From the NCBI GenBank assembly GCA_964535155.1, contig CAZHSR010000001.1, positions 13,896 to 53,693 of the forward strand: DNA of 39,798 bases, written 5' to 3'. Shown here in pieces: positions 3,219-38,424 of the stretch (its first letter is position 1; each line of letters begins with the position of its first letter). Position numbers and translations under genes: made by a program. The notes under the pieces are model-generated. The model ran no database searches, had not been told where the DNA came from, and saw nothing but the letters and a program-made list of their open reading frames with translations. Source of the DNA: an uncultured Candidatus Saccharibacteria bacterium. GTDB lineage: Bacteria > Patescibacteriota > WWE3 > UBA101185 > UBA10185.

Positions 3219-3749
3219 ATGCAAACAAATTTATATACAGAAGTAATCGAAGTATTAACCAGCACATTAGTGGAAACATTTTTTTCCTTTTTCCTAAATT
3301 TCTGGTATCTCTGGCTACCCATAATAAGCATAGCAACCTTCAAAATTTTTCTAGCAATCCATCGATTACATAAAATAAAAAAATCAGGTCTTTTTGAAAT
3401 AGTCAAAATGTATGGAACTGACTTTGAAATCTTCCTGAAGCAACTTTTTATTAAACTGGGATACAAAGTGGAAGTAACTGGAAGAATGGCAGATTATGGC
3501 GCGGATTTAACAATTGAAAAGGATAACATTAGAACTGCGGTTCAGGCCAAATGTTGGAGAAGTCCTGTTACTGTCAAGGCAATTCAAGAGGTAACCGCAG
3601 CTAAAGCTCATTACAATGCCACGGAAGCTATGGTAGTAACCAATAGCCGTTTTACTTCTAATGCGAGGGTTCTTGCAGAGGAAAATCACATACGGCTTGT
3701 GGATAGGGAGAAATTGGCGTCATTGATACTTCAAAGTAATAAGATATAA
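3219..3749 (+). CDS. membrane-anchored restriction endonuclease (Mrr_cat-like) domain protein
   Basis: N-terminal hydrophobic helices, then FEIFLKQLFIKLGYKVEVTGRMADYGADLTIEKDN..AVQAKCW...VVTNSRFTSNA...IRLVDREKL. This is the D-(D/E)xK layout of the Mrr catalytic domain. Confidence 0.75.
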   Translation: MQTNLYTEVIEVLTSTLVETFFSFFLNFWYLWLPIISIATFKIFLAIHRLHKIKKSGLFEIVKMYGTDFEIFLKQLFIKLGYKVEVTGRMADYGADLTIEKDNIRTAVQAKCWRSPVTVKAIQEVTAAKAHYNATEAMVVTNSRFTSNARVLAEENHIRLVDREKLASLILQSNKI

Positions 3750-4045
3750 AATGTATTGTGAGGCATGTCCTTGAGAATGAAAACCCTCAAATTCACCTCT
3801 TTATATAGGGCTTATATTTTTATGAATAAAGGCGTTTTTTTGAATAACAAATAACAAAAGACAAAACCTCATGTGCTATATAGGGTGACCATTCCGGAGA
3901 CCCACACATGAGGAATTATTTGTTATAGAAAGTATACATATTGAAAATGTTAAAGCAAATTTCAGAAGAATTCTCCAAACCTCCTTTCCTCCTGCAGTAG
4001 GAAAAGTAAGGTCTATTTTGGCTTATTTGTCAAACCACACATCAC

Positions 4046-4285
4046 TTAGAATAATCTAGCTATAAAAAGCACAAACAGCGCCCCTATAACCGCAATTACA
4101 ATGGAAGGTAGGTTAAATCCCGTTACATCCACTCCAAAGAGCTTTTGTCCCAAAAATCCACCTACAATAGCCCCAATAATTCCAAGGATAATTGATCCCA
4201 CTATGCCCCCACTCGAACTCGGGGAAATAAAATTGGCAATACCTCCAACAATTAATCCAAAAACGATCCAGTAAATAATACTCAC
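4046..4285 (-). CDS. GlsB/YeaQ/YmgE family stress-response membrane protein
   Basis: 79 aa, glycine-rich TM repeats (MSIIYWIVFGLIVGGIANFI...GAIVGGFLG). Confidence 0.8.
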   Translation of the reverse strand: MSIIYWIVFGLIVGGIANFISPSSSGGIVGSIILGIIGAIVGGFLGQKLFGVDVTGFNLPSIVIAVIGALFVLFIARLF

Positions 4286-4354
4286 TTAAATCACCTCCAG
4301 TACAGTTTAAAACTAGCAATAAATACGACTAACCAACTAACTAACAGCTAGCTT

Positions 4355-5077: not shown

Positions 5078-6673
5078 TTAGTTTAAAGGCAGGGAACTCC
5101 TTATATTAAAGATTGGCACACCTTCCCGATTTATGCTGGTTATCAAAGGATATATTTCCTCAAAACCTTTTAGCTTGTCCTTGTGCGTGTCACAAATTAT
5201 AATATTGGCATCTTCCGCGCCATCCACTAGTCCAAACTTAAATTGTGAATAGTAAACAACTGGAAACTTGCTATCACAAGAATATACTTTTAAATCTTCT
5301 ACCTCGTGAGAAACTGCAAAATCTCTTACATACTCAGCAGCTTCCTTGTAGGCAGCTCCCCAATAGTCAACATCAAAATTTCCTGAAACATTTTTTAAAC
5401 CGCCTGTTAATTCGTTAAAATAAATGTATTCGTAGGGATGCAAATGTACCATCCGATAGGCGGTGAACATAAAGTAAATACCTACAACTGCAACTACAAT
5501 CTTGCAGATGTGAAAATTTAATGTTTTAAAAACATCCAAAAAGAAAAACCCAGAAATTAAAGTTACTAGAACAACTAAATACAAAAAGTGCCTAATTCCA
5601 TTGTAAACAACGGGTTTTATTGCCAAATAAATTGCAAAATTTAAAAGACAAAGGATTGTTAGTAAAACCAAGGGATGATCTTTTTGATATTTAAGCTTTC
5701 TTTTCAACATAAGAAGCATGCCCGCCAAAAGAGGAAATAAGCTAAATAAAGGCATCTTTATACCCAAATAAACAAATAAGTAATGCCAAGGTCTTTCAGA
5801 TTTTCTTAAATATTCTCCAAAATAAATAATCTCGTGATTCCAATCGGCATATCCAGCAGCATTAACCAAAAGCCCATAAAAATTAAGGGGAAGATTTGCA
5901 CCAAGGAAGGGGAGGGCAATAATCCAAATGATAAGAGAAACAATAAAAATTAAAAGGGATTTAAGGCAAAAGTTAAAAAAGGCTTGAATATTGTGCTTTT
6001 TAAAGGGAAGAAAATCGGAAATTCCTAGGAAAAAATAGACCATCAATAAAGTTAACCCAACAACTCTTTGACTTTGTGCAAGCCCAAAAATTACGCCTAA
6101 AACTAAAATTTCCAAAAGCTCATTTTTCTTACGAGTTCTAAAAAAGTAAATTTCCAAAGCTCCCAAAAGGAAAATTGTAGCAAAAGGAATATCCTTTGGA
6201 TTTGCGGGAATATGCCCCAATAAATAAGGGGAAAAAGCAATAAATAGGGGAGCAAGAATAGCCTTTTTTCCACTTTTGTAATGCAAATAAAAGAGTACAT
6301 AAGAAAACAAGAACAGAGACCATCCAAAAAGCATGTTTTGCAAATGGAACCACTCAAAATAATAATTTGGGTTAAAAATATTAACCAAGGCGGGATAAAT
6401 TCTTGAATAAACGCTAAACAACGGAAGGTGCCTATGCTCAATATGAACGGGCTTTTTGTTTACTAAATTTGAAACATAATCCAAGGAAGTTGGGGTTTGA
6501 TAATAAGTAAGCAAATACTTTCCCGCGTCGTACTCTACTTTTTCATCGTATGTAACACCAAAGTCCTTGTAGGTTAAAAAGGAAAAAGCTAGATATAAAA
6601 GGGTAAAAATTAAGAAAAGAAAGTGGCTCTTTAAAAAAGACTTAAATTTTTCCAAGAATCTTAAAATCCTCAT
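5078..6673 (-). CDS. GT-C fold membrane glycosyltransferase (ArnT/PMT-like)
   Basis: 531 aa polytopic protein. An acidic motif (TYDEKVEYDAG) lies in the first loop after TM1, followed by a soluble C-terminal domain, as in GT39/GT83 enzymes. Confidence 0.65.
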   Translation of the reverse strand: MRILRFLEKFKSFLKSHFLFLIFTLLYLAFSFLTYKDFGVTYDEKVEYDAGKYLLTYYQTPTSLDYVSNLVNKKPVHIEHRHLPLFSVYSRIYPALVNIFNPNYYFEWFHLQNMLFGWSLFLFSYVLFYLHYKSGKKAILAPLFIAFSPYLLGHIPANPKDIPFATIFLLGALEIYFFRTRKKNELLEILVLGVIFGLAQSQRVVGLTLLMVYFFLGISDFLPFKKHNIQAFFNFCLKSLLIFIVSLIIWIIALPFLGANLPLNFYGLLVNAAGYADWNHEIIYFGEYLRKSERPWHYLFVYLGIKMPLFSLFPLLAGMLLMLKRKLKYQKDHPLVLLTILCLLNFAIYLAIKPVVYNGIRHFLYLVVLVTLISGFFFLDVFKTLNFHICKIVVAVVGIYFMFTAYRMVHLHPYEYIYFNELTGGLKNVSGNFDVDYWGAAYKEAAEYVRDFAVSHEVEDLKVYSCDSKFPVVYYSQFKFGLVDGAEDANIIICDTHKDKLKGFEEIYPLITSINREGVPIFNIRSSLPLN

Positions 6674-6721
6674 GGAAAAAGTATATCAAGTAGAAAAGCT
6701 GTTGTAACCTTTAAAGCTTAA

Positions 6722-7627
6722 TTAAGGCGTTTCCAACTCAATTTGCACATGCGCCACATCGGGAAGGGCTTCATTTATTTCAACCTTAATCCTATCCATT
6801 AGGCGCTCAATCTCATCCGTTGTTAAGCCGTTTCTAACATGCACTTCCAAATTTACCAATAATTTTTCTGGACCAATAATTGTGCCTTTTAAATCAAGCA
6901 CTTCTAAAACCTCTGGCTGTTCTAGGACTGCTTCCTTAATTTTTTCTTTCTGAGAGTCGGAAATACTTAATCCAATAAGCAAATCCTTAACCGAAAGGAT
7001 GATGCCCCGAGCAAAAACCATTATTAACACACCAATTAAAATGGCGCCAATAGCATCAAATTGGGGGTTGCCCGTAAGGATATAAATCAATAGAGCCAGA
7101 ATTCCAACTAATGCTGCCAAAGTGCCAATTAAATCCAAGATCAGGGAAGTCTTTAGGTCAACTAAAAGTGAGTCCCGATACTGATCCCGTATAGATTTAC
7201 CTTTCTGCAAAAAGAGGCCCTTATAATTTAGACAAAAAGAATAGCCATTACTAACAACCGCAACTCCCAAAATGATAAGTGCAATATGAATGTTCTCAAT
7301 TGGTTGCGGATTTAGAAAACGAGTCACGCCAGAATAAATGGAAAGCCCAGATAATGCTGTTGCCATAACAATGGATGTGATTAAAACCCAAAAATACATT
7401 TCCCTGCCATACCCAAAAGGATGCTTTTTATCCGCCCGTTTATTGGAACGATTTAAGCCTACAAGGAGGAAAGTAGCCGAGGCGGTATCAACAATTCCTT
7501 GGAGGGTTTCTGCAAGCATGACCACACTTCCTGTGAGGAGGAGGGCAAGTAGGCTTAAGGAAATGTCGAGCAGGTTTACAAAAAAGCCTGTTAAAAGTAT
7601 TTTCTTAGTTGTGATTTTTTTTGACAT
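6722..7627 (-). CDS. cation diffusion facilitator (CDF) family transporter
   Basis: Six TM segments, KKHPFGYGR signature and a C-terminal cytoplasmic alpha/beta domain. Confidence 0.85.
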   Translation of the reverse strand: MSKKITTKKILLTGFFVNLLDISLSLLALLLTGSVVMLAETLQGIVDTASATFLLVGLNRSNKRADKKHPFGYGREMYFWVLITSIVMATALSGLSIYSGVTRFLNPQPIENIHIALIILGVAVVSNGYSFCLNYKGLFLQKGKSIRDQYRDSLLVDLKTSLILDLIGTLAALVGILALLIYILTGNPQFDAIGAILIGVLIMVFARGIILSVKDLLIGLSISDSQKEKIKEAVLEQPEVLEVLDLKGTIIGPEKLLVNLEVHVRNGLTTDEIERLMDRIKVEINEALPDVAHVQIELETP

Positions 7628-7634
7628 AAAAACC

Positions 7635-8792
7635 TTAAACAGGCAAAACTACCCAAAAAGTACTCCCCTTATAGTCACCTTCAGAAAAGCATCCAACTGA
7701 ACCTCCCATGGCCTCCACAAATATCTTTACTGCATATAAACCCAAACCCGTTCCTCCAGATATAGCCATCTTCTTATAAGAGTTCTCCACTCTTCCAAAT
7801 TTTGTAAAAAGCTTGGAGATTTCATCTTTGCTTAAACCTACGCCACTATCAATTACCGAAATCTTTAATTCCGTTTCCTTTTTCTCAATCCTAACCGTAA
7901 TACCTCCTTTATCCGTAAATTTGATTGCGTTATTCACCAAATTTAAAAAGCATGATTTTAACTTCACTTCGTCATATAAAACTTCCATATTTTTGTCACA
8001 ATTCACTAAATCCAGTTTTAAGTAAATATTCTTTTCATTTGCTTGCGGGATAAAGGAATTTACCACATCCTCAACAAGTTCAACAATCTTCCCAGGGACA
8101 ATATTAAATTCCAGCTTTCCCTGTTCTACTCTAGAAATATTTAACATATCATTTACCATGGAAATCATTTGCTCCGTACTTTTAGAGGCCATATCCAAAT
8201 ACTGATTAGCATCAGAATTACCTAGTGGTGTAAGTTCCTCTTGCAATAACCATAAAACACTTTTTATAACAGTTAGGGGACTTCTAAGCTCATGAGATGC
8301 TAAAGAAAGAAAGTCATCTTTTGCCTTATCCAACAGGATTTCCTTTGTTACATCCGACATTGTAATTAAGCATTCAGACTCATTGGGATTAACTTCCGAG
8401 TCGATCTGGGAAAATTTTACATTTAGATAATAATCTTGTTGATCAGACTTTAAAATTAGGTTGTATAAAACTGGCATTTTCTGTGGAGGTAAAAAGCAAT
8501 ATTGCTTAATATCTATAGGAACGCCTTCTTCGTTTTTCAAATGAATTACATGATCAATATTTTTCCCCAAAACACTATGCCCTGGTAATCCAAGCATTTT
8601 TTCTAGGGCGTTGTTAAAAATGGTTATTTTATAATCAGTGTCTAGAGCAAAAACCCCTTCGGATACGTTATATAACAAATCTTCCGCACGCCTTCGTTCC
8701 TTTAGTAGCTCAAGGTTTCTCTTATATATTTCTTGGGCAATATCTTCTTTGGGATTTTTAGAAACGATGGGCATATTTGGATTATACAACAA
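7635..8792 (-). CDS. PAS-domain sensor histidine kinase (soluble)
   Basis: H-box SHELRSPLT, N box LVNNAIKFT, G boxes DSGVGL and GGTGLGL. A PAS-like N-terminal half; no TM segment. Confidence 0.85.
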   Translation of the reverse strand: MLYNPNMPIVSKNPKEDIAQEIYKRNLELLKERRRAEDLLYNVSEGVFALDTDYKITIFNNALEKMLGLPGHSVLGKNIDHVIHLKNEEGVPIDIKQYCFLPPQKMPVLYNLILKSDQQDYYLNVKFSQIDSEVNPNESECLITMSDVTKEILLDKAKDDFLSLASHELRSPLTVIKSVLWLLQEELTPLGNSDANQYLDMASKSTEQMISMVNDMLNISRVEQGKLEFNIVPGKIVELVEDVVNSFIPQANEKNIYLKLDLVNCDKNMEVLYDEVKLKSCFLNLVNNAIKFTDKGGITVRIEKKETELKISVIDSGVGLSKDEISKLFTKFGRVENSYKKMAISGGTGLGLYAVKIFVEAMGGSVGCFSEGDYKGSTFWVVLPV

Positions 8793-13835: not shown

Positions 13836-14582
13836 CTATTTTTCCGACACTTCAACCGAAACGATTGAAACTGGCTCTTTTGGCTTGGACATTTCCCCAG
13901 TTAAACTTCTATCCACTGGAGCTGTTGCTATAGCGTCAACAACTTCCATTCCATTTGTGACCTTGCCAAAAATTACATAATTTTTGGGTAGGGGATAGTC
14001 AGCGTGCATAATAAAAAACTGGCTTCCGTTTGTGTCTGGGCCAGAATTTGCCATTGCTACAGTGCCACGGGTATATTCGCCAGTAAAGGGTTCGTCTGCA
14101 AATTTGTAGCCAGGGCCTCCCATGCCTGTACCTTCGGGGCATCCGCCTTGGATCATGAACCCTTCGATTACGCGGTGGAAAATTGTGTCATTGTAAAAGC
14201 CATTTTTGGAGAGGTCTACAAAGTTTTGAACGGTTTTGGGGGTTTGGTTGGTGTTGAGGGCAATTGTAATGTCGCCTTTGGTGGTTTTTAAGGTGACAAT
14301 GTAGGCTTTTTCTTCTTTTTCTTCCTCTACAGCTCCAACCGAAGGATTTTCCAGGCCATCCTCTGCGGGAGTCGTATTTTCTGCAGGGGATATACTTTCG
14401 ACTCGGGTTTCTGCCACAGAGGAAACTCCTAATTTCTCTCCGTTTTCTTTGGCTAATGATAAATTATCAGAATTGCCGGAACTATTGTCTAAATTACTAT
14501 TTTTTGATTTTTTAAAGAAAAACATAAATCCTCCTATGGAAAAAAATATTATTACTAGTGCCATTACATATCCTTTTTGCAT
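13836..14582 (-). CDS. membrane-anchored cyclophilin-type peptidyl-prolyl cis-trans isomerase
   Basis: N-terminal TM helix and low-complexity linker, then FHRVIEGFMIQGG...GSQFFI cyclophilin signatures. Confidence 0.9.
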   Translation of the reverse strand: MQKGYVMALVIIFFSIGGFMFFFKKSKNSNLDNSSGNSDNLSLAKENGEKLGVSSVAETRVESISPAENTTPAEDGLENPSVGAVEEEKEEKAYIVTLKTTKGDITIALNTNQTPKTVQNFVDLSKNGFYNDTIFHRVIEGFMIQGGCPEGTGMGGPGYKFADEPFTGEYTRGTVAMANSGPDTNGSQFFIMHADYPLPKNYVIFGKVTNGMEVVDAIATAPVDRSLTGEMSKPKEPVSIVSVEVSEK

Positions 14583-31746: not shown

Positions 31747-32391
31747 ATGAACGACAAAACCACAAAAACAACCCCAACTAACCCACCAAAACCCAAGGCT
31801 AAAACAACCAAGAGCCTCCTTGAACCCCTTACCACAACCACCAAGACAGTTTTTACAACTCAAGACCTTAATAAAATATGGCAATATGAAAACTATAAAA
31901 GCCTGATTCAACGCATTTCATACCTTTCAAAAGCAGGGAAAATTCAAAAAATTAAGCGCGGAATCTATTCCTTCCCAAATCGTCCAATAAATGAGTTGGA
32001 GCTTGCAAATAAAATCAAAACCCCCTCATATATTTCCTTTGAGACAGTTCTCTATATAGAGGGGATAATTTTCCAGTGGGATAACCGAATTACTTTAGCA
32101 GCAAAAGATTCGCGTGAAATACAGATTCAAAATGACCCACTAGCACTTAAAATAGTATTTAGGAAAATTAAAGACGAGATTCTGCTTAATCCAACGGGGA
32201 TAATTCCAGAGAATAATTATTTTGTGGCTTCAAAAGAACGAGCAATGCTAGATATGCTTTATATAAGCCCAAATTTCACCTTTGATAATTTAAGAAGTAT
32301 TGATTTTGCCAAACTAAAAGAAATGGCTCAAATTTATAATAGAGCCTCAATTTTTAGGGCAATAGAAAGGCTGGAAAAATATGTTAGATAG
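31747..32391 (+). CDS. AbiEi-family type IV antitoxin (copy 1)
   Basis: wHTH-like region (LIQRISYLSKAGKIQKIKRGIYSF), then SYISFETVLYIEG and ASKERAMLDMLY, as in AbiEi. Overlaps the downstream toxin gene by 11 nt. Confidence 0.75.
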   Translation: MNDKTTKTTPTNPPKPKAKTTKSLLEPLTTTTKTVFTTQDLNKIWQYENYKSLIQRISYLSKAGKIQKIKRGIYSFPNRPINELELANKIKTPSYISFETVLYIEGIIFQWDNRITLAAKDSREIQIQNDPLALKIVFRKIKDEILLNPTGIIPENNYFVASKERAMLDMLYISPNFTFDNLRSIDFAKLKEMAQIYNRASIFRAIERLEKYVR

Positions 32392-33145
32392 ACTAAAACA
32401 TGAGACTACAATGCGAAACATCTTGGATGATATTTACAACGATAATTTTTTGTCAAATAAACTTGGCTTTAAAGGTGGAACCTGTGCATACTTTTTTTAT
32501 GAATTGCCCAGATTCTCTACCGATTTGGATTTTAACTTGATTTCTACAAGGGACTCAATCGATGAGAGTAAAGGCACAATTGAGGATGAAAGCTCTAAAA
32601 GTACGCTGGCAAATCAAGTCTTTGAAAAATTGGAAGAACTGCTAAAGAAACATGGCGAGGTTAGGGACAGACACATTAAGGCAAATACTATATTCTTTTA
32701 TGTTGTACATACGCCAAATAAAAGCGGTATAAAAATTGAAATTTCAACAAGAGAAATAGAAAAAATCAATGCATACGAATTGAAAGAATTTTATGGAACA
32801 TCTTTTTTAATTATGAAGCGAGCGGATTTATTTGCAAACAAGTTATTAGCTTTAACAATGCGTGTAAACCCTTCGGCTAGGGATTTGTATGATATAAATT
32901 TTTTCTTTTCAAAAAACTGGGATATAAATGAGAATGTGGTTAGTGAGGCGTCTGGAAAAGCTTTTTTGGAATATGTAGAGGCGTTGCCAAAGTTTATTGA
33001 AGAAACTTTTAATTCTGCAAATGTGCATTTGGGATTGGGGGAGCTGTTAAAAGGGCAATCGGAAAGGGATTTTGTTAAAAGAAAGTTAGTAGAAGATACT
33101 GTAAATAAAATTAGGTTTTTTGTGGATGCGCATAAGAGATTTTAG
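32381..33145 (+). CDS. AbiEii/AbiGii (DUF1814) nucleotidyltransferase toxin (copy 1)
   Basis: FKGGTCAYFFYELPRFSTDLDFN is the hallmark NTase motif. Also a later ARDLYDI motif. Confidence 0.85.
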   Translation: MLDRLKHETTMRNILDDIYNDNFLSNKLGFKGGTCAYFFYELPRFSTDLDFNLISTRDSIDESKGTIEDESSKSTLANQVFEKLEELLKKHGEVRDRHIKANTIFFYVVHTPNKSGIKIEISTREIEKINAYELKEFYGTSFLIMKRADLFANKLLALTMRVNPSARDLYDINFFFSKNWDINENVVSEASGKAFLEYVEALPKFIEETFNSANVHLGLGELLKGQSERDFVKRKLVEDTVNKIRFFVDAHKRF

Positions 33146-33214
33146 CTTGTAATCTTTTAAAGGTTATCCCTTAATCGTTTTAGAAGCCTAAATTCTATTT
33201 AAGAGTAAAATAGC

Positions 33215-33297
33215 AAAAAACAAAAAAGCCCTTGGTCTCCCAAGAGCTTTCCTGCCATCCTCTCTTTACTTATGATTAACATAAGAGAAGCATCGAC
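33215..33297 (-). ncRNA. candidate small RNA A (hairpin + GNRA-looped intrinsic terminator)
   Basis: On the minus strand: TGGTAAAAT extended -10 (complement of 33304-33312), hairpin 33269-33285, and terminator stem 33228-33247 (a G-U pair forms only on the minus strand, loop GAGA) followed by U6-G-U6. No ORF larger than 7 codons. Confidence 0.3.
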
Positions 33298-33323
33298 ATG
33301 GTTATTTTACCAAATATGTAGCG

Positions 33324-33394
33324 AACAAAAAAGCCTCTGTATAAACAGAGGCTTTCTTGCATCCAACACTGAAAATTCAGTGGGGCCTTGACAT
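33324..33394 (-). ncRNA. candidate small RNA B (paralogue of A)
   Basis: On the minus strand: TAAAAT (complement of 33401-33406), hairpin 33367-33382, and terminator 33331-33354 followed by a U-run. It shares the GGATG(G)CA(G/A)GAAAGC linker with unit A. Confidence 0.3.
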
Positions 33395-33458
33395 AAGATG
33401 ATTTTACACTAGATCCCAATATTTATCAAAAATAGTTGAAACTATCCGAATTTATAAT

Positions 33459-33505
33459 AATTTGTAGACCCAACTCTACGAATTTCGCTAAATTTGTAGA
33501 CCCAA
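33459..33505 (+). repeat. 15-bp direct repeat AATTTGTAGACCCAA x2 (33459-33473, 33491-33505), 32-bp period
   Basis: Read directly. Lies upstream of the DGR RT gene. Confidence 0.85.
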
Positions 33506-33507
33506 TG

Positions 33508-33650
33508 AAGGATAATCCTTGCAGGAAATAGAACTTTTGGTGTTAGCAACAGGACAAAGCCCGTTTTTTATGAAGGATTATCCTTGGGCAATATAGCCCC
33601 TTAGACTTTAGCAACAAGCAGAAGTGCGTATTCGGCAAAGGATTATCCTT
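33508..33650. repeat. palindrome array 6: AAGGATAATCCTT 33508-33520, AAGGATTATCCTT 33573-33585 and 33638-33650
   Basis: Read directly; exact 65-bp register. It ends 6 nt before the RT start codon. Confidence 0.9.
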
Positions 33651-33656
33651 TAAGAT

Positions 33657-34838
33657 GTGTTCCAAACTTTGCTAAGCGCGTACAAACAATGTCAAAAGAA
33701 CAAAAGGCTAAAAACCTCTTCAGCTAAATTTGAAATAAACCTAGAAAAAGAGCTGATTTCCTTGGAAGCCGACCTAAAATCAAAAACATATAACCCGGGC
33801 AGGTTTTCCGTATTTGTAGTTACTGAGCCAAAAGTAAGAGAAATATTTGCCGCGGAGTTTAGAGACAGAGTTATTCATCACATTATTGTTAATCACATTC
33901 AGCCTGTCTTTGAGCCAAAATTTATTTATGACAGCTTTGCCAATCGAAAAAACAAAGGCACTCACTTAGCGGTTAAAAGGTTGCAAATTTTTGCAAGAAA
34001 AATTACAAAAAACGGCAATCAAAAGGCGTTTTATTTACAGGCAGATATAAAAAACTTCTTTCCTTCCATTAACCACAACATTTTGTTTAACTTAATAAAA
34101 AAACATATTCACAACAAAGAAATTCTAGACCTTACAAAATTAATAATTTTCCATGATTGCACACAAAATCCCATTAGAAAAGGACATCCAAGTTTATTTC
34201 AAAAAGTTCCGCCTCAAAAATCTTTGTTTTTTACACCAAAAGGGCAAGGCCTTCCAATAGGAAATTCAACCTCCCAATTTTTTGCAAATGTTTATTTAAA
34301 TGAGCTAGATCAGTATGTGAAGCATTCTTTAAAGTGCAAATTTTATGTACGATACGTGGATGACTTTGTCATTTTGGATATAAATAGAGAAAAACTGGAA
34401 GAGATTTTGCAAAAAATTAATGTGTTTTTACTGGAAAAATTGGCACTAGAGTTGCATCCAAATAAATGCAAAATAGAGGTGATTTCTAAGGGAATTGATG
34501 CCTTGGGATATGTTATTAAGCCAGATTATTTGATTGTTAGAAAAAGGGTAATCAAAACCTTAAAGAGAAAGTTGTGGGAGTTTAAGAGAATGGTAGGGGA
34601 AAACGAGGCGAGACGGGAAGGGACGAAGAAGGGAGAAAACGAGGTGGATTGGGAATTTATTGTATCCAGCATCAACTCCTATTATGCCCATTTTGGACAT
34701 GCAAAAAGCTATAAATTACGGAAAAACCTTTGGGAAAAACACTTTGGAATTTTAAAAGACTATCTAATTCCAATAAACGGATATAAATACTTTAAATTAA
34801 AGAAAACTAAGAGCCCCAACCAAGCTAAAAAAAGCTAG
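33657..34838 (+). CDS. DGR-type reverse transcriptase
   Basis: 393 aa, GTG start. Motifs: PKVREIFAAEFRDRVIHH, SFANRKNKGTHLA, LPIGNSTSQFFANVYLNELD (the DGR-typical IGxxxSQ) and the catalytic box YVRYVDDFVIL. No maturase or endonuclease domains. Confidence 0.92.
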   Translation: MFQTLLSAYKQCQKNKRLKTSSAKFEINLEKELISLEADLKSKTYNPGRFSVFVVTEPKVREIFAAEFRDRVIHHIIVNHIQPVFEPKFIYDSFANRKNKGTHLAVKRLQIFARKITKNGNQKAFYLQADIKNFFPSINHNILFNLIKKHIHNKEILDLTKLIIFHDCTQNPIRKGHPSLFQKVPPQKSLFFTPKGQGLPIGNSTSQFFANVYLNELDQYVKHSLKCKFYVRYVDDFVILDINREKLEEILQKINVFLLEKLALELHPNKCKIEVISKGIDALGYVIKPDYLIVRKRVIKTLKRKLWEFKRMVGENEARREGTKKGENEVDWEFIVSSINSYYAHFGHAKSYKLRKNLWEKHFGILKDYLIPINGYKYFKLKKTKSPNQAKKS

Positions 34839-34854
34839 AGTTGGAGCCCAAAGT

Positions 34855-34999
34855 TAAATACTTCCAGGGACGCAACACAACCCGAAACCCGATATTACTA
34901 TTTGCATTACTAGTGTTATTGTTATTGACATTGGAACAACTAGAGTTGCCTAAGATCCTTGCATTAGTTGTATTGTTGGCGGCGGAAGCCCAACTATAT
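34855..34999 (-). repeat. DGR template repeat (TR)
   Basis: About 145 bp homologous to 35817-35962. Its minus-strand frame is rich in AAC/AAT codons (WASAANNTTNARILGNSSCSNVNNNNTSNANSNIGFRVVLRP). Confidence 0.9.
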
Positions 35000-35360
35000 A
35001 GGCAACAAAACAAAAAAGCAAAGTGTCAGGACAAATAACACCCATGTTTGTTAGTCTCTTCACTTTTGCGGTTTAATAAACCCTTTAGAAACCAATCTCA
35101 TATTAACCAATAAACAGAGTATGGTTTCTTGCATAGATCCTCAAAGCTTTTTTAGTTACTCAATCCATATTTATCTGCAATCTTTGGCCTTAAGCCAATT
35201 TATATTGCAGGAAAGAGACCGAAGTATTTTTTGGCCAAGGTTTCTAACCTTGAAACAAAGCTTGCTGTTAGGCTGGCTTTGTTACACTTTTGAGCCGTTT
35301 AAGGGTCTTTTAAACTAGTTCAAAATTCTGGCCAGGGCGATGAGTGGGCAAATAGAAGGA

Positions 35361-35699
35361 CTAGGACGATTTTATCCAGCCTCCTAACATTTTACCCACC
35401 TCATCTACATATTTTGAAAGAACTTCATATTTTTTAACACCTATTATTTTTAAACCAAAACATAACCGAATGTAAATACGCATACGGTCTAAATGTGTAT
35501 TTGCTTTCTTTAAATGGGGCTTTTTGTTAATTTCAGAATTGGCAATAATTATACAGTCTAAAAATTCCAAACAGGCTGTCTGTAGGCTTTGTCCCAGGCT
35601 ATATCTATATTCTTTTGGAAATTTATGTATTTCTTTATATATTCTAAGAAGAAGATCATAAGATTTTTGAAAGATGGTAAGTTGTGTATATTGTGCCAT
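35361..35699 (-). CDS. avd: Avd accessory variability determinant (four-helix-bundle family)
   Basis: 112 aa. IFQKSYDLLLRIYKEIHKFPKEYRYSLGQSL...LDRMRIYIRLCF...VGKMLGGWIKS fits the Avd / 23S-rRNA-IVS four-helix-bundle pattern. It lies between the target gene and TR. Confidence 0.8.
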   Translation of the reverse strand: MAQYTQLTIFQKSYDLLLRIYKEIHKFPKEYRYSLGQSLQTACLEFLDCIIIANSEINKKPHLKKANTHLDRMRIYIRLCFGLKIIGVKKYEVLSKYVDEVGKMLGGWIKSS

Positions 35700-35712
35700 A
35701 AAAATTTTTTGC

Positions 35713-35800
35713 GTTCTTTGCTACGCAAAGAACTTGGTTCAAGCCTTTGGCTTGAAAACCTTTTGCTTTGCAAAAGGTTATGCAGCCACTACGTGGCTGC
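35713..35800. other. four tandem perfect stem-loops, each with a 3-nt loop (35713-35733, 35738-35756, 35757-35779, 35782-35800)
   Basis: Stems of 9, 8, 10 and 8 bp with no mismatches. Plus-strand loops are TAC, TTT, TTT, TAC. The array lies between the VR end and the avd start. Confidence 0.85.
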
Positions 35801-35816
35801 TCAAATGAGCAGAGTC

Positions 35817-35962
35817 TAAATACTTCTCAGGGACGCAACACAACCCGAAACCCGATAGTACTACCAGCACCACTAGCGCTATTGAGAAAGACAAGGGAAC
35901 AACTAGAGTAGCCTAAGATCCTTGCATAAGTAGTATTGTAGGCGGCGGAAGCCCAACTATAA
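35817..35962 (-). repeat. DGR variable repeat (VR) at the 3' end of the target gene
   Basis: With TR coordinate + 963 = VR coordinate, there are 18 mismatches. All fall at plus-strand T in TR, which is A on the coding strand. Confidence 0.9.
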
Positions 35963-36801
35963 TTAGTATCACCGTCGTTGCATGTCTTCCTGTTAGCATA
36001 AAATAACCCCCCGTAACAGGCCAAGGGATAGTCATTACTTGAGTGTTGCTCACAGGCATTTTGGAAATCATTACCTACACTCGTACTGGACGCGTAATAT
36101 GGCAAAGCAGACTTACTTCCTGTTGCCAAAGCCCATGTTGCTAAAGAGGCATTTACTGCAGCTAAATCAGCACCCAAACAGCCATTCCCAGTACATAAAT
36201 CTCTGGTGCCGTCTAAACAATCGGAAATTGCCAATGCAGAAATACTGCTATACCCAGCCGAACCATTATGAGAACTGGTTATGGTTACACTATTTACACT
36301 AGAAACCAACTTGTACCACTGACCAGCTGACGCTGCTATCATTCGGTCCTTGAGTGCGGGAACATCACTGGCGCAAGTGTAAGCCCCGGGGTTATCAACA
36401 TCATCTCCAACCCCTTTATTCCAGCTCACAGTGTCTGCCAAAGTCTTAGACCAGCAGGCACCTCTTCCGTTGGTTTCGTACCAATACCAACCAGAGATTG
36501 AGTTGCAGTTACATTCGGTTAAAGTGGACCAAGTAGCTTCTGATAATAAGACCTGACCATTACAAATTGTCATATCAACTTTGGAGGCAATTTGTTCTGG
36601 ATCGTTAAAGTCTTCCGTAACGGAAAGGGAAACGGCGCGGGCAACAAGGGTTAAAATGGAAATTGTGGCAATTAAAACGGTGGCTACTATTGTGCCAAGG
36701 ATTATTCGGGATTTTTTTGTGGCGGGGAGGGCACGGAGGGAAGTGGGCAAGGTGGTAAGGGGGATTTTGCTAAATATTTTTGTAAGTTTTTTTAAGGGCA
36801 T
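35827..36801 (-). CDS. DGR target (variable) protein: N-terminal TM anchor, Cys-rich ectodomain, C-terminal CLec-type variable region
   Basis: 324 aa. TM segment IILGTIVATVLIATISILTLV. The C-terminus WASAAYNTTYARILGYSSCSLVFLNSASGAGSTIGFRVVLRP aligns with the TR frame. Confidence 0.9.
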   Translation of the reverse strand: MPLKKLTKIFSKIPLTTLPTSLRALPATKKSRIILGTIVATVLIATISILTLVARAVSLSVTEDFNDPEQIASKVDMTICNGQVLLSEATWSTLTECNCNSISGWYWYETNGRGACWSKTLADTVSWNKGVGDDVDNPGAYTCASDVPALKDRMIAASAGQWYKLVSSVNSVTITSSHNGSAGYSSISALAISDCLDGTRDLCTGNGCLGADLAAVNASLATWALATGSKSALPYYASSTSVGNDFQNACEQHSSNDYPLACYGGLFYANRKTCNDGDTNYSWASAAYNTTYARILGYSSCSLVFLNSASGAGSTIGFRVVLRP

Positions 36802-36869
36802 GTTTCATTAAAATATACACTTCTGTACATTTTATTGCAACCTAAATAAAAACTGGTGTATCAAATAAG

Positions 36870-36905
36870 AGATAATTGACACAGAAGGTAATTATCTAGT
36901 ATAAT
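36870..36905 (+). promoter_or_regulatory. candidate promoter of abiEi-2 (TTGACA-18-TATAAT, near-leaderless) overlapped by inverted repeat AGATAATT-N12-AATTATCT
   Basis: -35 at 36876-36881 and -10 at 36900-36905, with the ATG at 36912 only 6 nt after the -10. Inverted-repeat arms at 36870-36877 and 36890-36897. Confidence 0.5.
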
Positions 36906-36911
36906 CTACAC

Positions 36912-37661
36912 ATGGAAGACATAAAAATTATTGAACTTGTCCTTATAAAAAAAGGCCGAATTGTAACAAATGCAGCATTAAGCAAATATCTAGGTACATA
37001 TATAGATGTAAACAAAAAAATTTCCTCGCTTATAAAAAAAGGATTTTTGGTGAAACTAAAAAAAGGGACTTATTACATTGCTAAATTAGGAAGTTTAAGC
37101 TACATCTCTATATCCAACTACCTAATAGCAAATATTATAGGGGAGAAGTCCTTTGTTTCTTTTGAAGCAGCCCTAAAATTCCATGGGCTATTTGACCAGG
37201 GGATTAGTAAATATAGGTCTATCTCATTAAAGCAATACTTAACCAAAAATTTGGAGGGAATAAGCTATGAATACATAAAAGTTAAGCAGAATCAGTATTT
37301 TGGGTTTAATCTTGAAAGAGTTGATGGGGGAAACGCGGAAATTGCTACAAAGGAAAGGGCACTATTGGATCTTCTTGAATATAAAAGGTCCATTAGTACT
37401 GTAAGTTTAGTTTTGGAAAAATTAAGCACATATAAATCGGAGATTAATTTTAGTCTGTTAAACGAATATGCGGAAAATTATTCGCAGACGACAATAAAAA
37501 TATTAGGTTTATTACTGGATATTTTAGAGATTGATAGCAAGGATTTGGAGGGGTTAATTAATAAAAAATCAACTTCTCGCATGCTAAAGGATTCCGATAA
37601 ATTCAGTAATAAATGGAGACTTTATTACAACTCTATATTGGAAAATCAAATTAATGATTGA
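36912..37661 (+). CDS. AbiEi-family type IV antitoxin (copy 2)
   Basis: ISSLIKKGFLVKLKKGTYYI wHTH region, SFVSFEAALKFHGL and ATKERALLDLLEY. Overlaps the toxin gene by 8 nt. Confidence 0.75.
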   Translation: MEDIKIIELVLIKKGRIVTNAALSKYLGTYIDVNKKISSLIKKGFLVKLKKGTYYIAKLGSLSYISISNYLIANIIGEKSFVSFEAALKFHGLFDQGISKYRSISLKQYLTKNLEGISYEYIKVKQNQYFGFNLERVDGGNAEIATKERALLDLLEYKRSISTVSLVLEKLSTYKSEINFSLLNEYAENYSQTTIKILGLLLDILEIDSKDLEGLINKKSTSRMLKDSDKFSNKWRLYYNSILENQIND

Positions 37662-38424
37662 TTTAATAACTAGAGAGCAATTGGAATACACCGCCAAATC
37701 GGTATTAAATTATCCCTTACATGATGCCGAAAAAGATTATTTTCTGACACAAGTCATGAAAGTGGTTTCAGAATCATCATTATCAAATGCCCTCATTTTT
37801 AAGGGGGGAACCTCTATATATCATTGTTATCTAGACCAATTAAGATTTTCTGAGGACTTGGATTTTACTGCAATTGATAAAGACATATGCATAGAGGAAA
37901 TTAGGGAGATTTTTGACAAATTGGCTATGTTTGAATTTAAGAAAGAGTATGAATCCACTGCTACAATAAAGATTGAAAGGTTAAAGTATTACGGTATTCT
38001 TGACACTCCAAATAGCATAAAGTTTGAGGTGGATAGAATGCAAAATGTGATATTACCCACAGTCCATAGGCAGTATAAAAATGTGTGGGATTTAGACTTT
38101 TCCGTAAATGTAATGGATCCTGTGGAGATATGTGCAGAAAAATTGCGGGCTTGTAATGACAGGTTTAGATATAGAGATTTTTATGATTTATATATGATGA
38201 TAACCAAGCTAAATATAAACATTAAAAACTCCATATCCCTGATACCCCAAAAGGAAATCAGAAAGCCCTTTTCCAAGGAAAACATTTTAAGAAATTTTGC
38301 TTTAGCATTAAATGAAATCTCAATGGAAGCTGATACGGTTACATATAAAGAAGTTCTGAATACTGAGATTTTGAAAAAATTCTTTGAAGAGTTGAATTTA
38401 TCTCCACTTCAACCTAATGTTTAA
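37654..38424 (+). CDS. AbiEii/AbiGii (DUF1814) nucleotidyltransferase toxin (copy 2)
   Basis: FKGGTSIYHCYLDQLRFSEDLDFT hallmark motif, plus a later YRDFYDLY motif. Confidence 0.85.
   Translation: MIDLITREQLEYTAKSVLNYPLHDAEKDYFLTQVMKVVSESSLSNALIFKGGTSIYHCYLDQLRFSEDLDFTAIDKDICIEEIREIFDKLAMFEFKKEYESTATIKIERLKYYGILDTPNSIKFEVDRMQNVILPTVHRQYKNVWDLDFSVNVMDPVEICAEKLRACNDRFRYRDFYDLYMMITKLNINIKNSISLIPQKEIRKPFSKENILRNFALALNEISMEADTVTYKEVLNTEILKKFFEELNLSPLQPNV

Follow-up and report, generated by a model that had tools for sequence, protein, structure and literature searches.

A diversity-generating retroelement (DGR) lies in a 39,798-nt stretch of contig CAZHSR010000001.1 from an uncultured Candidatus Saccharibacteria bacterium (positions 13,896 to 53,693 of the forward strand; the window, numbered here from its first letter), with its reverse transcriptase (RT) gene on the plus strand and its template repeat (TR), accessory gene avd and target gene on the minus strand. 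This layout is normal for the lineage, and we consider it likely that the folded RNA that positions and primes the template lies 5′ of the TR, in the gap between avd and TR. The features that define the layout are listed below.

33657–34838, plus strand: DGR RT gene, 393 aa, TAG stop at 34836–34838; RVT_1, E 2e-24.
34839–34854, no strand assigned: 16-nt interval from the RT stop to the TR homology; 5′ arm of a hairpin at 34811–34849.
34855–34998, minus strand: TR, a repeat of the variable repeat (VR) at 35817–35961.
35361–35699, minus strand: avd, encoding a bAvd-like accessory protein; PF22296 bAvd, E 9e-23.
35827–36801, minus strand: target gene, 324 aa, with the VR over its 3′ end.

The TR/VR repeat of 144 nt includes 18 mismatches, and all 18 are T on the plus strand, which is A in a minus-sense TR; with 40 A among 136 TR bases, the chance of 18/18 mismatches falling on A is ~3e-10. 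Because all of the mismatches are at adenines of the minus sense, the TR must share the minus-strand sense of avd and the target. The first-pass annotation had an RT gene convergent with a minus-sense TR 16 nt away, and the coordinates and the adenine pattern bear this out. TR and VR are each present once in the genome. TR and the avd stop are 362 nt apart, in agreement with the gap of ~360 nt described earlier. The sole open reading frame (ORF) listed in the gap is a 65-aa plus-strand frame, and the conserved features of the gap are minus-strand RNA helices.

Approximately 215 loci with relatives of this RT, drawn from related genomes, metagenomes and species genomes, were scored for RT, avd and adenine-biased TR/VR pairs. 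The nearer relatives show three repeatedly occurring gene orders. Type I (RT→ ←TR ←avd ←target) is the order of this genome and of 12 other distinct loci with RT identity of at least 56%; all 12 of the other distinct relatives that reach this identity and have sufficient flank carry it, and the end of the TR homology lies between −12 and +35 nt relative to the RT stop. Type II loci (RT→ avd→ ←TR ←target) encode RTs 46–50% identical to this one, with the TR abutting the avd stop, and type III loci, with RT identities of 38–51%, have the canonical order, in which all four of target, avd, TR and RT point the same way (co-directional). In a FastTree topology of 156 RTs, type I is a single clade, sister to a group that comprises type II (one clade) and type III. 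Three close relatives have no usable flank, namely L089, L211 and L215, the last of which ends too early. A Bro-N-like gene, judged by eye, is found between RT and TR in L089 (849–1502), and a Pfam Bro-N gene (3680–4297) follows RT in L211, where the contig ends before any TR. About 45 nt resembling the RT C-terminal antisense sequence of L046 are still attached to the TR of L089, and the RT C-terminus of that locus is new.

TR and RT on opposite strands are on record as a minority pattern in passages of two earlier surveys (PMC5758913 and PMC6642488). As the order is shared across the clade and patterns of this type are recorded in those passages, the layout is a lineage trait of a known kind, fixed throughout the RT clade, and not a one-off.

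The leader that occupies the avd-TR gap is composed of the following parts.

35049–35242, minus strand: structured leader RNA of the TR transcript, a spacer-like domain of ~195 nt, located by covariance model R1 (described below).
35236–35252, minus strand: P0 hairpin, 5′ of the core strand, from folding.
35213–35229, minus strand: core strand, made up of the H2 5′ strand AAAUACUUC (35221–35229), an invariant G (35220) and the H3 5′ strand GUCUCUU (35213–35219).
34856–34864, minus strand: H2 3′ strand GAAGUAUUU, the final 9 nt of the TR, which pairs with leader positions 35221–35229.
35054–35060, minus strand: H3 3′ strand AAGAGAC, between leader and TR, which pairs with 35213–35219 and has compensatory CG/UA changes in relatives.
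35175–35210, minus strand: P4 hairpin directly past the H3 5′ strand, then an A-rich linker; from folding and RNAalifold.
35087–35129, minus strand: P5, a two-part stem-loop AGAAACCA...UGGUUUCU, the positional counterpart of an RT-binding stem-loop; from covariation and R1.
35325–35333, minus strand: motif GGCCAGAAU, common to type I and type III leaders, just past the avd stop.

Alignment with type I relatives reveals a conserved block in the gap, AAAUACUNCGGYCUCUUU, the 5′ half of which is complementary to the TR end. Unconstrained folding of minus-sense RNAs of 427–468 nt places H2 and H3 in both the minimum free energy and the centroid structures, with pair probabilities in the RNA of this genome of 0.83–0.997 for H2 and 0.85–0.95 for H3. 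From nine type I leaders, and with no structure as input, RNAalifold recovers H3, P4 and P5 unaided. Two further pairings were considered. A helix, H1, between leader positions 35230–35238 and the 16-nt RT-TR interval appears in folds that end at 34825 or 34836, but its probability is 0.001 when the downstream hairpin is included, and it is rejected for this genome. The AC-UNCG-GY sequence between H2 and H3 can be drawn as a UNCG tetraloop (compare Bordetella Sp71–78) in all type I leaders; as types II and III do not fit, it is a local alternative only.

Covariation was counted class by class on constructs in which the leader was joined to the TR 3′ end and the TR interior removed, with MAFFT alignment by sequence similarity alone. 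The proportion of alignment cells paired, compared with the same count after the partner strand was slid, was as follows.

Type I, 13 sequences: 96.5% of cells paired, against 42–52% with slid partner; 9 compensatory pairs.
Type III subgroup, 19 sequences: 90.1% of cells paired, against 34–47% with slid partner; 23 compensatory pairs.
Type II, 12 sequences: 87.8% of cells paired, against 28–51% with slid partner; 13 compensatory pairs.

Six of the compensatory pairs in type I belong to P5, and one H3 pair is CG in 8 sequences and UA in 5. In the type III subgroup, H2 has five compensatory pairs (for example CG in 9, UA in 7 and AU in 3 sequences, with none unpaired) and seven of the eight H3 pairs are compensatory; none of 500 shuffles attained the observed value on any measure. 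H3 is 100% paired in type II, with five compensatory pairs, and in this class the extra helix H1 is supported, formed by the leader with the 10 nt immediately 3′ of the TR and including six compensatory pairs. Two sequences are misaligned in the 3′ part of the type II alignment, and this counts against the structure. Since the H2 pairs hardly vary within type I, H2 in that class rests on complementarity and on covariation between classes. Covariation in 35000–35360, which had been proposed as a check on the region, is present and supports helices in all three types.

Within one type II subgroup (L048, L050, L057, L082, L132 and L147), the TR end GGUACUUA has one mismatch with the leader strand UAAGUCC. 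Where it overlaps, the VR copy (GGGACU...) would pair at that mismatch, and the difference between the initiation of mutagenic homing (IMH) and IMH* sequences falls exactly on the leader-pairing position.

Leaders also match their own templates better than those of other loci. Across 43 loci, the leader strand scored a mean of 15.5 with its own TR end and 11.1 with the TR ends of others, and none of 10,000 permutations attained the observed sum, either overall or for type III alone (p <= 1e-4). A blind search of every locus for a composite strand pairing both TR ends, upstream compared with downstream, had no statistical power against dinucleotide shuffles, although the true junction was recovered in many loci; for want of that power it was replaced by the alignment covariation and the cognate test.

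Covariance model R1 was built from nine type I leaders, with this genome and its same-genus relative excluded. Searched against the 39.8-kb window with filters off, it gave one significant match, at 35049–35242 on the minus strand (40.1 bits, E 1.4e-7), which is full length (model positions 1–130), and the next match had an E of 0.13. The whole-genome search returned the same single place. Over 1.17 Mb of related loci, R1 also matched type III and type II leaders (E < 0.01), and in each case inspected the match was directly 5′ of the TR and on its strand, irrespective of the orientation of RT. Because the matches track the TR whatever the RT orientation, leader and TR behave as one module that has been set on either strand. 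The gap had been suggested to hold either a TR promoter or a structured leader. Covariation and the R1 match support the leader; no convincing minus-strand promoter was found within the gap by a sigma-70 scan, the only candidate being a weak 9/12 match in the avd 3′ end (35418–35389). We infer that the leader is co-transcribed with avd.

A hairpin and U-rich tract are found directly 3′ of the TR.

34794–34849, minus strand: hairpin at 34811–34849 (~−22.5 kcal/mol), then U-rich tract at 34794–34810 UUAGUUUUCUUUAAUUU.

The hairpin coincides with the extra C-terminal codons of RT and the 16-nt interval, and covers the RT stop and last codons. These final ~11 codons are specific to this genome, relatives ending at ...YFKLK(K) where TKSPNQAKKS is added here. 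Read from the sequences, the H2 partner includes the stop codon of RT in most type I loci, and this genome differs from them. Hairpin and U-rich tract together are probably the terminator of the TR RNA, to judge from the predicted fold, and the hairpin may be the counterpart, by position, of the Avd-binding stem-loop that follows the TR in Bordetella phage BPP-1. Either role is put forward conditionally, since the hairpin is not conserved in relatives. As the hairpin and tract extend over the last codons of RT, a short antisense overlap of the predicted TR RNA with those codons is likely.

From these parts, the template RNA would be a self-contained unit of leader, TR and short tail, on the strand opposite RT. 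Reading 5′ to 3′, the leader would present P0, the 9-nt strand facing the TR end, the invariant G, the 7-nt strand, P4, the A-rich linker and P5; most likely it would keep the TR 3′ end within the active site of RT-Avd and provide the priming nucleotide. Such an RNA would require nothing 3′ of 34856 beyond a terminator, so any gene could abut the TR in any orientation.

The earlier expectation was of a Bordetella-type arrangement, in which a functional spacer 3′ of the TR would be antisense to the last ~140 nt of RT. The BPP-1 spacer is indeed located 3′ of its TR, where Rfam family RF03022 (Phage_DGR) finds it, and TR transcription here probably enters the RT 3′ end by some 40–60 nt, up to the U-rich tract. 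However, the unit of primer strand, G and stop strand is upstream of the TR, and the sequence 3′ of the TR has nothing in common across the classes, being the RT 3′ end in type I, the avd 3′ end in type II and the RT 5′ end in type III. Bro-N genes are inserted after RT in L089 and L211. Nor was there excess synonymous conservation at the RT 3′ end as judged by third-codon identity among relatives, which is 0.605 over the last 45 codons and 0.55 elsewhere, within the 0.49–0.63 of other 40-codon segments. RF03022 has no match in 33000–37200 at E <= 1 and none at the gathering score in the 11 relatives tested, with BPP-1 as positive control at 104.7 bits. A spacer of this kind 3′ of the TR is accordingly very unlikely, and with the spacer-like domain 5′ of the TR, a spacer-length overlap with RT is not needed. 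Convergent transcription of RT and TR RNA could itself be regulatory, through antisense or collision coupling, and be kept for that reason; the layout is stable in two sister clades, and the stretch between RT and TR shows no evident terminator on the plus strand. The same leader nevertheless occurs in the co-directional type III relatives, and the two Bro-N insertions part RT from TR, so that we regard such a role as improbable, though it could hold alongside a priming leader. An inversion made in assembly, or a local rearrangement that arose recently in this genome only, is refuted by the relatives to the point of near impossibility: nothing was found in its favour, and the same order is carried by 12 other independent assemblies from different samples and by a same-genus genome.

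A closer competitor accepts the leader as a real structured RNA that pairs both TR ends but does not prime, and that instead recruits RT-Avd, stabilises or processes the transcript, or marks the cDNA end, with the primer coming from elsewhere, such as a nicked RNA 3′-OH or the target DNA. All of the structural evidence is equally compatible with it, and a passage of PMC5703328 proposes for BPP-1 a model of priming by nicked RNA. Against it, the strand order and invariant G mirror the Bordetella primer strand and G57, which is a resemblance only, and we give this explanation a minor but appreciable share of the probability. Several further points weigh against a priming leader 5′ of the TR. The alignments were made from pieces cut and joined manually, and the helices were initially spotted by eye; six of the seven H2 pairs are invariant in type I, and the seventh is paired in 8 of the 13 sequences and unpaired in 5. 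The whole RNA folds only moderately better than shuffles (z −2.17), and the leader in this genome has insertions and lies ~55 nt farther from the TR than those of relatives. Conservation of the hairpin after the TR is lacking even in the same-genus relative. With these points counted, we still favour a leader that positions the template, and we infer that priming proceeds from it.

Taken on its own, the element is, by its sequence, a complete and ordinary DGR of a candidate-phyla (Patescibacteria-like) bacterium. The host genome (795 kb in 57 contigs, 37% G+C) has values usual for candidate-phyla bacteria. The RT translation contains the motifs YVDD and IGNSTSQ, which we take to be marks of DGR RTs, and the nearest homologues of this RT adjoin TR/VR pairs. 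A DGR-type RT, TR/VR differences at TR adenines, Avd and a VR at the target 3′ end are all present, as are a GC-rich IMH-like end and inverted repeats downstream of the VR. The corresponding TR end is the following.

34865–34890, minus strand: IMH*-like GC-rich TR end, with the GC-rich block GGGTTTCGGGTTGTGTTGCGTCCC common to TR and VR.

Between the target stop and avd, 35710–35800 holds a run of several perfect short hairpins, one of which is listed as terminator-like. Some type II relatives appear to have RT and Avd fused; in L031 a single 529-aa frame (6118–7704) extends over both, and protein P0042 (502 aa) has RVT_1 and bAvd domains together. The RT homologues P0081, P0104 and P0120 (48–50% identity) have an extra PF01624 (MutS domain I) domain.

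The surroundings of the element have features of their own. A 13-nt palindrome, AAGGATWATCCTT, is repeated in many intergenic regions between 18453 and 33651, often paired ~65 nt apart, and three copies are immediately 5′ of the RT gene (33507–33651). Two AbiEi-like/AbiEii toxin-antitoxin pairs flank the DGR, at 31747–33145 and 36912–38424 (AbiEii E 4e-20 and 4e-30), and an AbiEii gene also adjoins RT in relative L210. Weak, sub-threshold Rfam matches (BTnc231, E 1e-3) fall in 33215–33440, and a minus-strand promoter-like site is found upstream of the RT region.

For this genome alone, the layout is typical of the lineage, and the interest lies in the cis-acting RNA domain upstream of the template. 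With that domain in the gap, upstream of the TR, the puzzle of an overlap with RT is removed, and this applies to a large group of DGRs. On balance, we lean towards the view that a large DGR clade uses a circularly permuted, retron-like template RNA, in which primer and RT/Avd-binding domain both precede the template on its 5′ side and leader and TR make up an autonomous module that evolution has placed on either strand relative to RT. The clade so defined would, with the same slight leaning, take in candidate-phyla bacteria and, by record titles, Omnitrophota, Nitrospirota-like, Desulfobacterales and others. If this is true, the opposite-strand architectures in the RT superclade would be explained and gene orders with TR opposite RT would no longer be puzzling. 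The position of the primer and protein-binding domain would be immaterial to the general DGR priming rule, and surveys restricted to sequence downstream of the TR would miss the cis elements of these DGRs. TR RNA genes could be annotated on their own by covariance model, and a second compact RNA design would be available for trial in engineered DGR mutagenesis systems.

The best-described DGR RNA is that of BPP-1, which consists of an avd 3′ segment, the TR and a spacer and for which a cryo-EM study of the RNP is available; there the 140-nt spacer, Sp, is located 3′ of the TR, and Sp47–56 pairs with TR117–129 and ends in the priming A56 (10.1101/2023.10.23.563531). G57 is required, and Sp59–70 pairs with a segment of avd just 5′ of the TR (10.1101/2023.10.23.563531). 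The spacer continues with a short stem-loop, adenosines, a single-stranded ring and an RT-binding stem-loop (10.1101/2023.10.23.563531). The leader described here has its elements in the same order, with a strand pairing the TR 3′ end, a G, a strand pairing 5′ of the TR, a hairpin, an A-rich stretch and an interrupted long stem-loop. As in BPP-1, one continuous strand forms both the duplex with the TR 3′ end and the adjacent duplex with the segment 5′ of the TR. The two systems also share RT and Avd, adenine-specific TR/VR differences, a GC-rich IMH-like end and hairpins after the VR. They differ in that the spacer-like domain, including that continuous strand, is here wholly 5′ of the TR and in BPP-1 3′ of it, that RT is here on the opposite strand, and that avd and TR are here 362 nt apart but adjacent in BPP-1. 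There is no RF03022-type spacer between TR and RT, only 16 nt separating the TR from the convergent RT stop; Rfam gave nothing relevant to the leader, and R1 gives no match to BPP-1. The likeness of the leader to the Bordetella spacer is thus one of functional analogy by architecture and not of membership in RF03022. The conservation analysis of other DGRs in the BPP-1 study covered 40 nt upstream and 100 nt downstream of the TR (10.1101/2023.10.23.563531), and with only 40 nt upstream included, an upstream domain would be invisible to it. Among the 278 Avd-containing DGRs considered there, 71 lack predicted downstream elements (10.1101/2023.10.23.563531).

Surveys of DGR gene order provide a second comparison. 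Passages of Wu et al. 2018 (PMC5758913) define classes B1–B3, with TR-(avd)-RT (B3) accounting for 90% of the candidate phyla radiation (CPR) set, and passages of Yan et al. 2019 (PMC6642488) describe a cassette, G5, in which RT is inverted. In those passages, as here, the core consists of avd, TR and RT, but the order here is avd-TR-(RT) and not the TR-(avd)-RT of B3 (PMC5758913). The passages concerned (PMC5758913 and PMC6642488) do not discuss the location of the cis-acting RNA. A literature search, incomplete for subscription journals, found no description of an upstream or permuted DGR spacer, and a prior description is possible. In topology only, the arrangement resembles retron msr-msd, as the template is preceded by the priming region and a 5′ region pairs with the template 3′ end, joining primer and template start. 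The RT here clusters with DGR RTs that have TR/VR pairs, and Avd and a TR/VR pair are present; membership among retrons is not proposed. The order of elements shared with BPP-1, placed here on the other side of the TR, suggests that the leader RNA and the BPP-1 RNA are related by architecture as circular permutations of one another.

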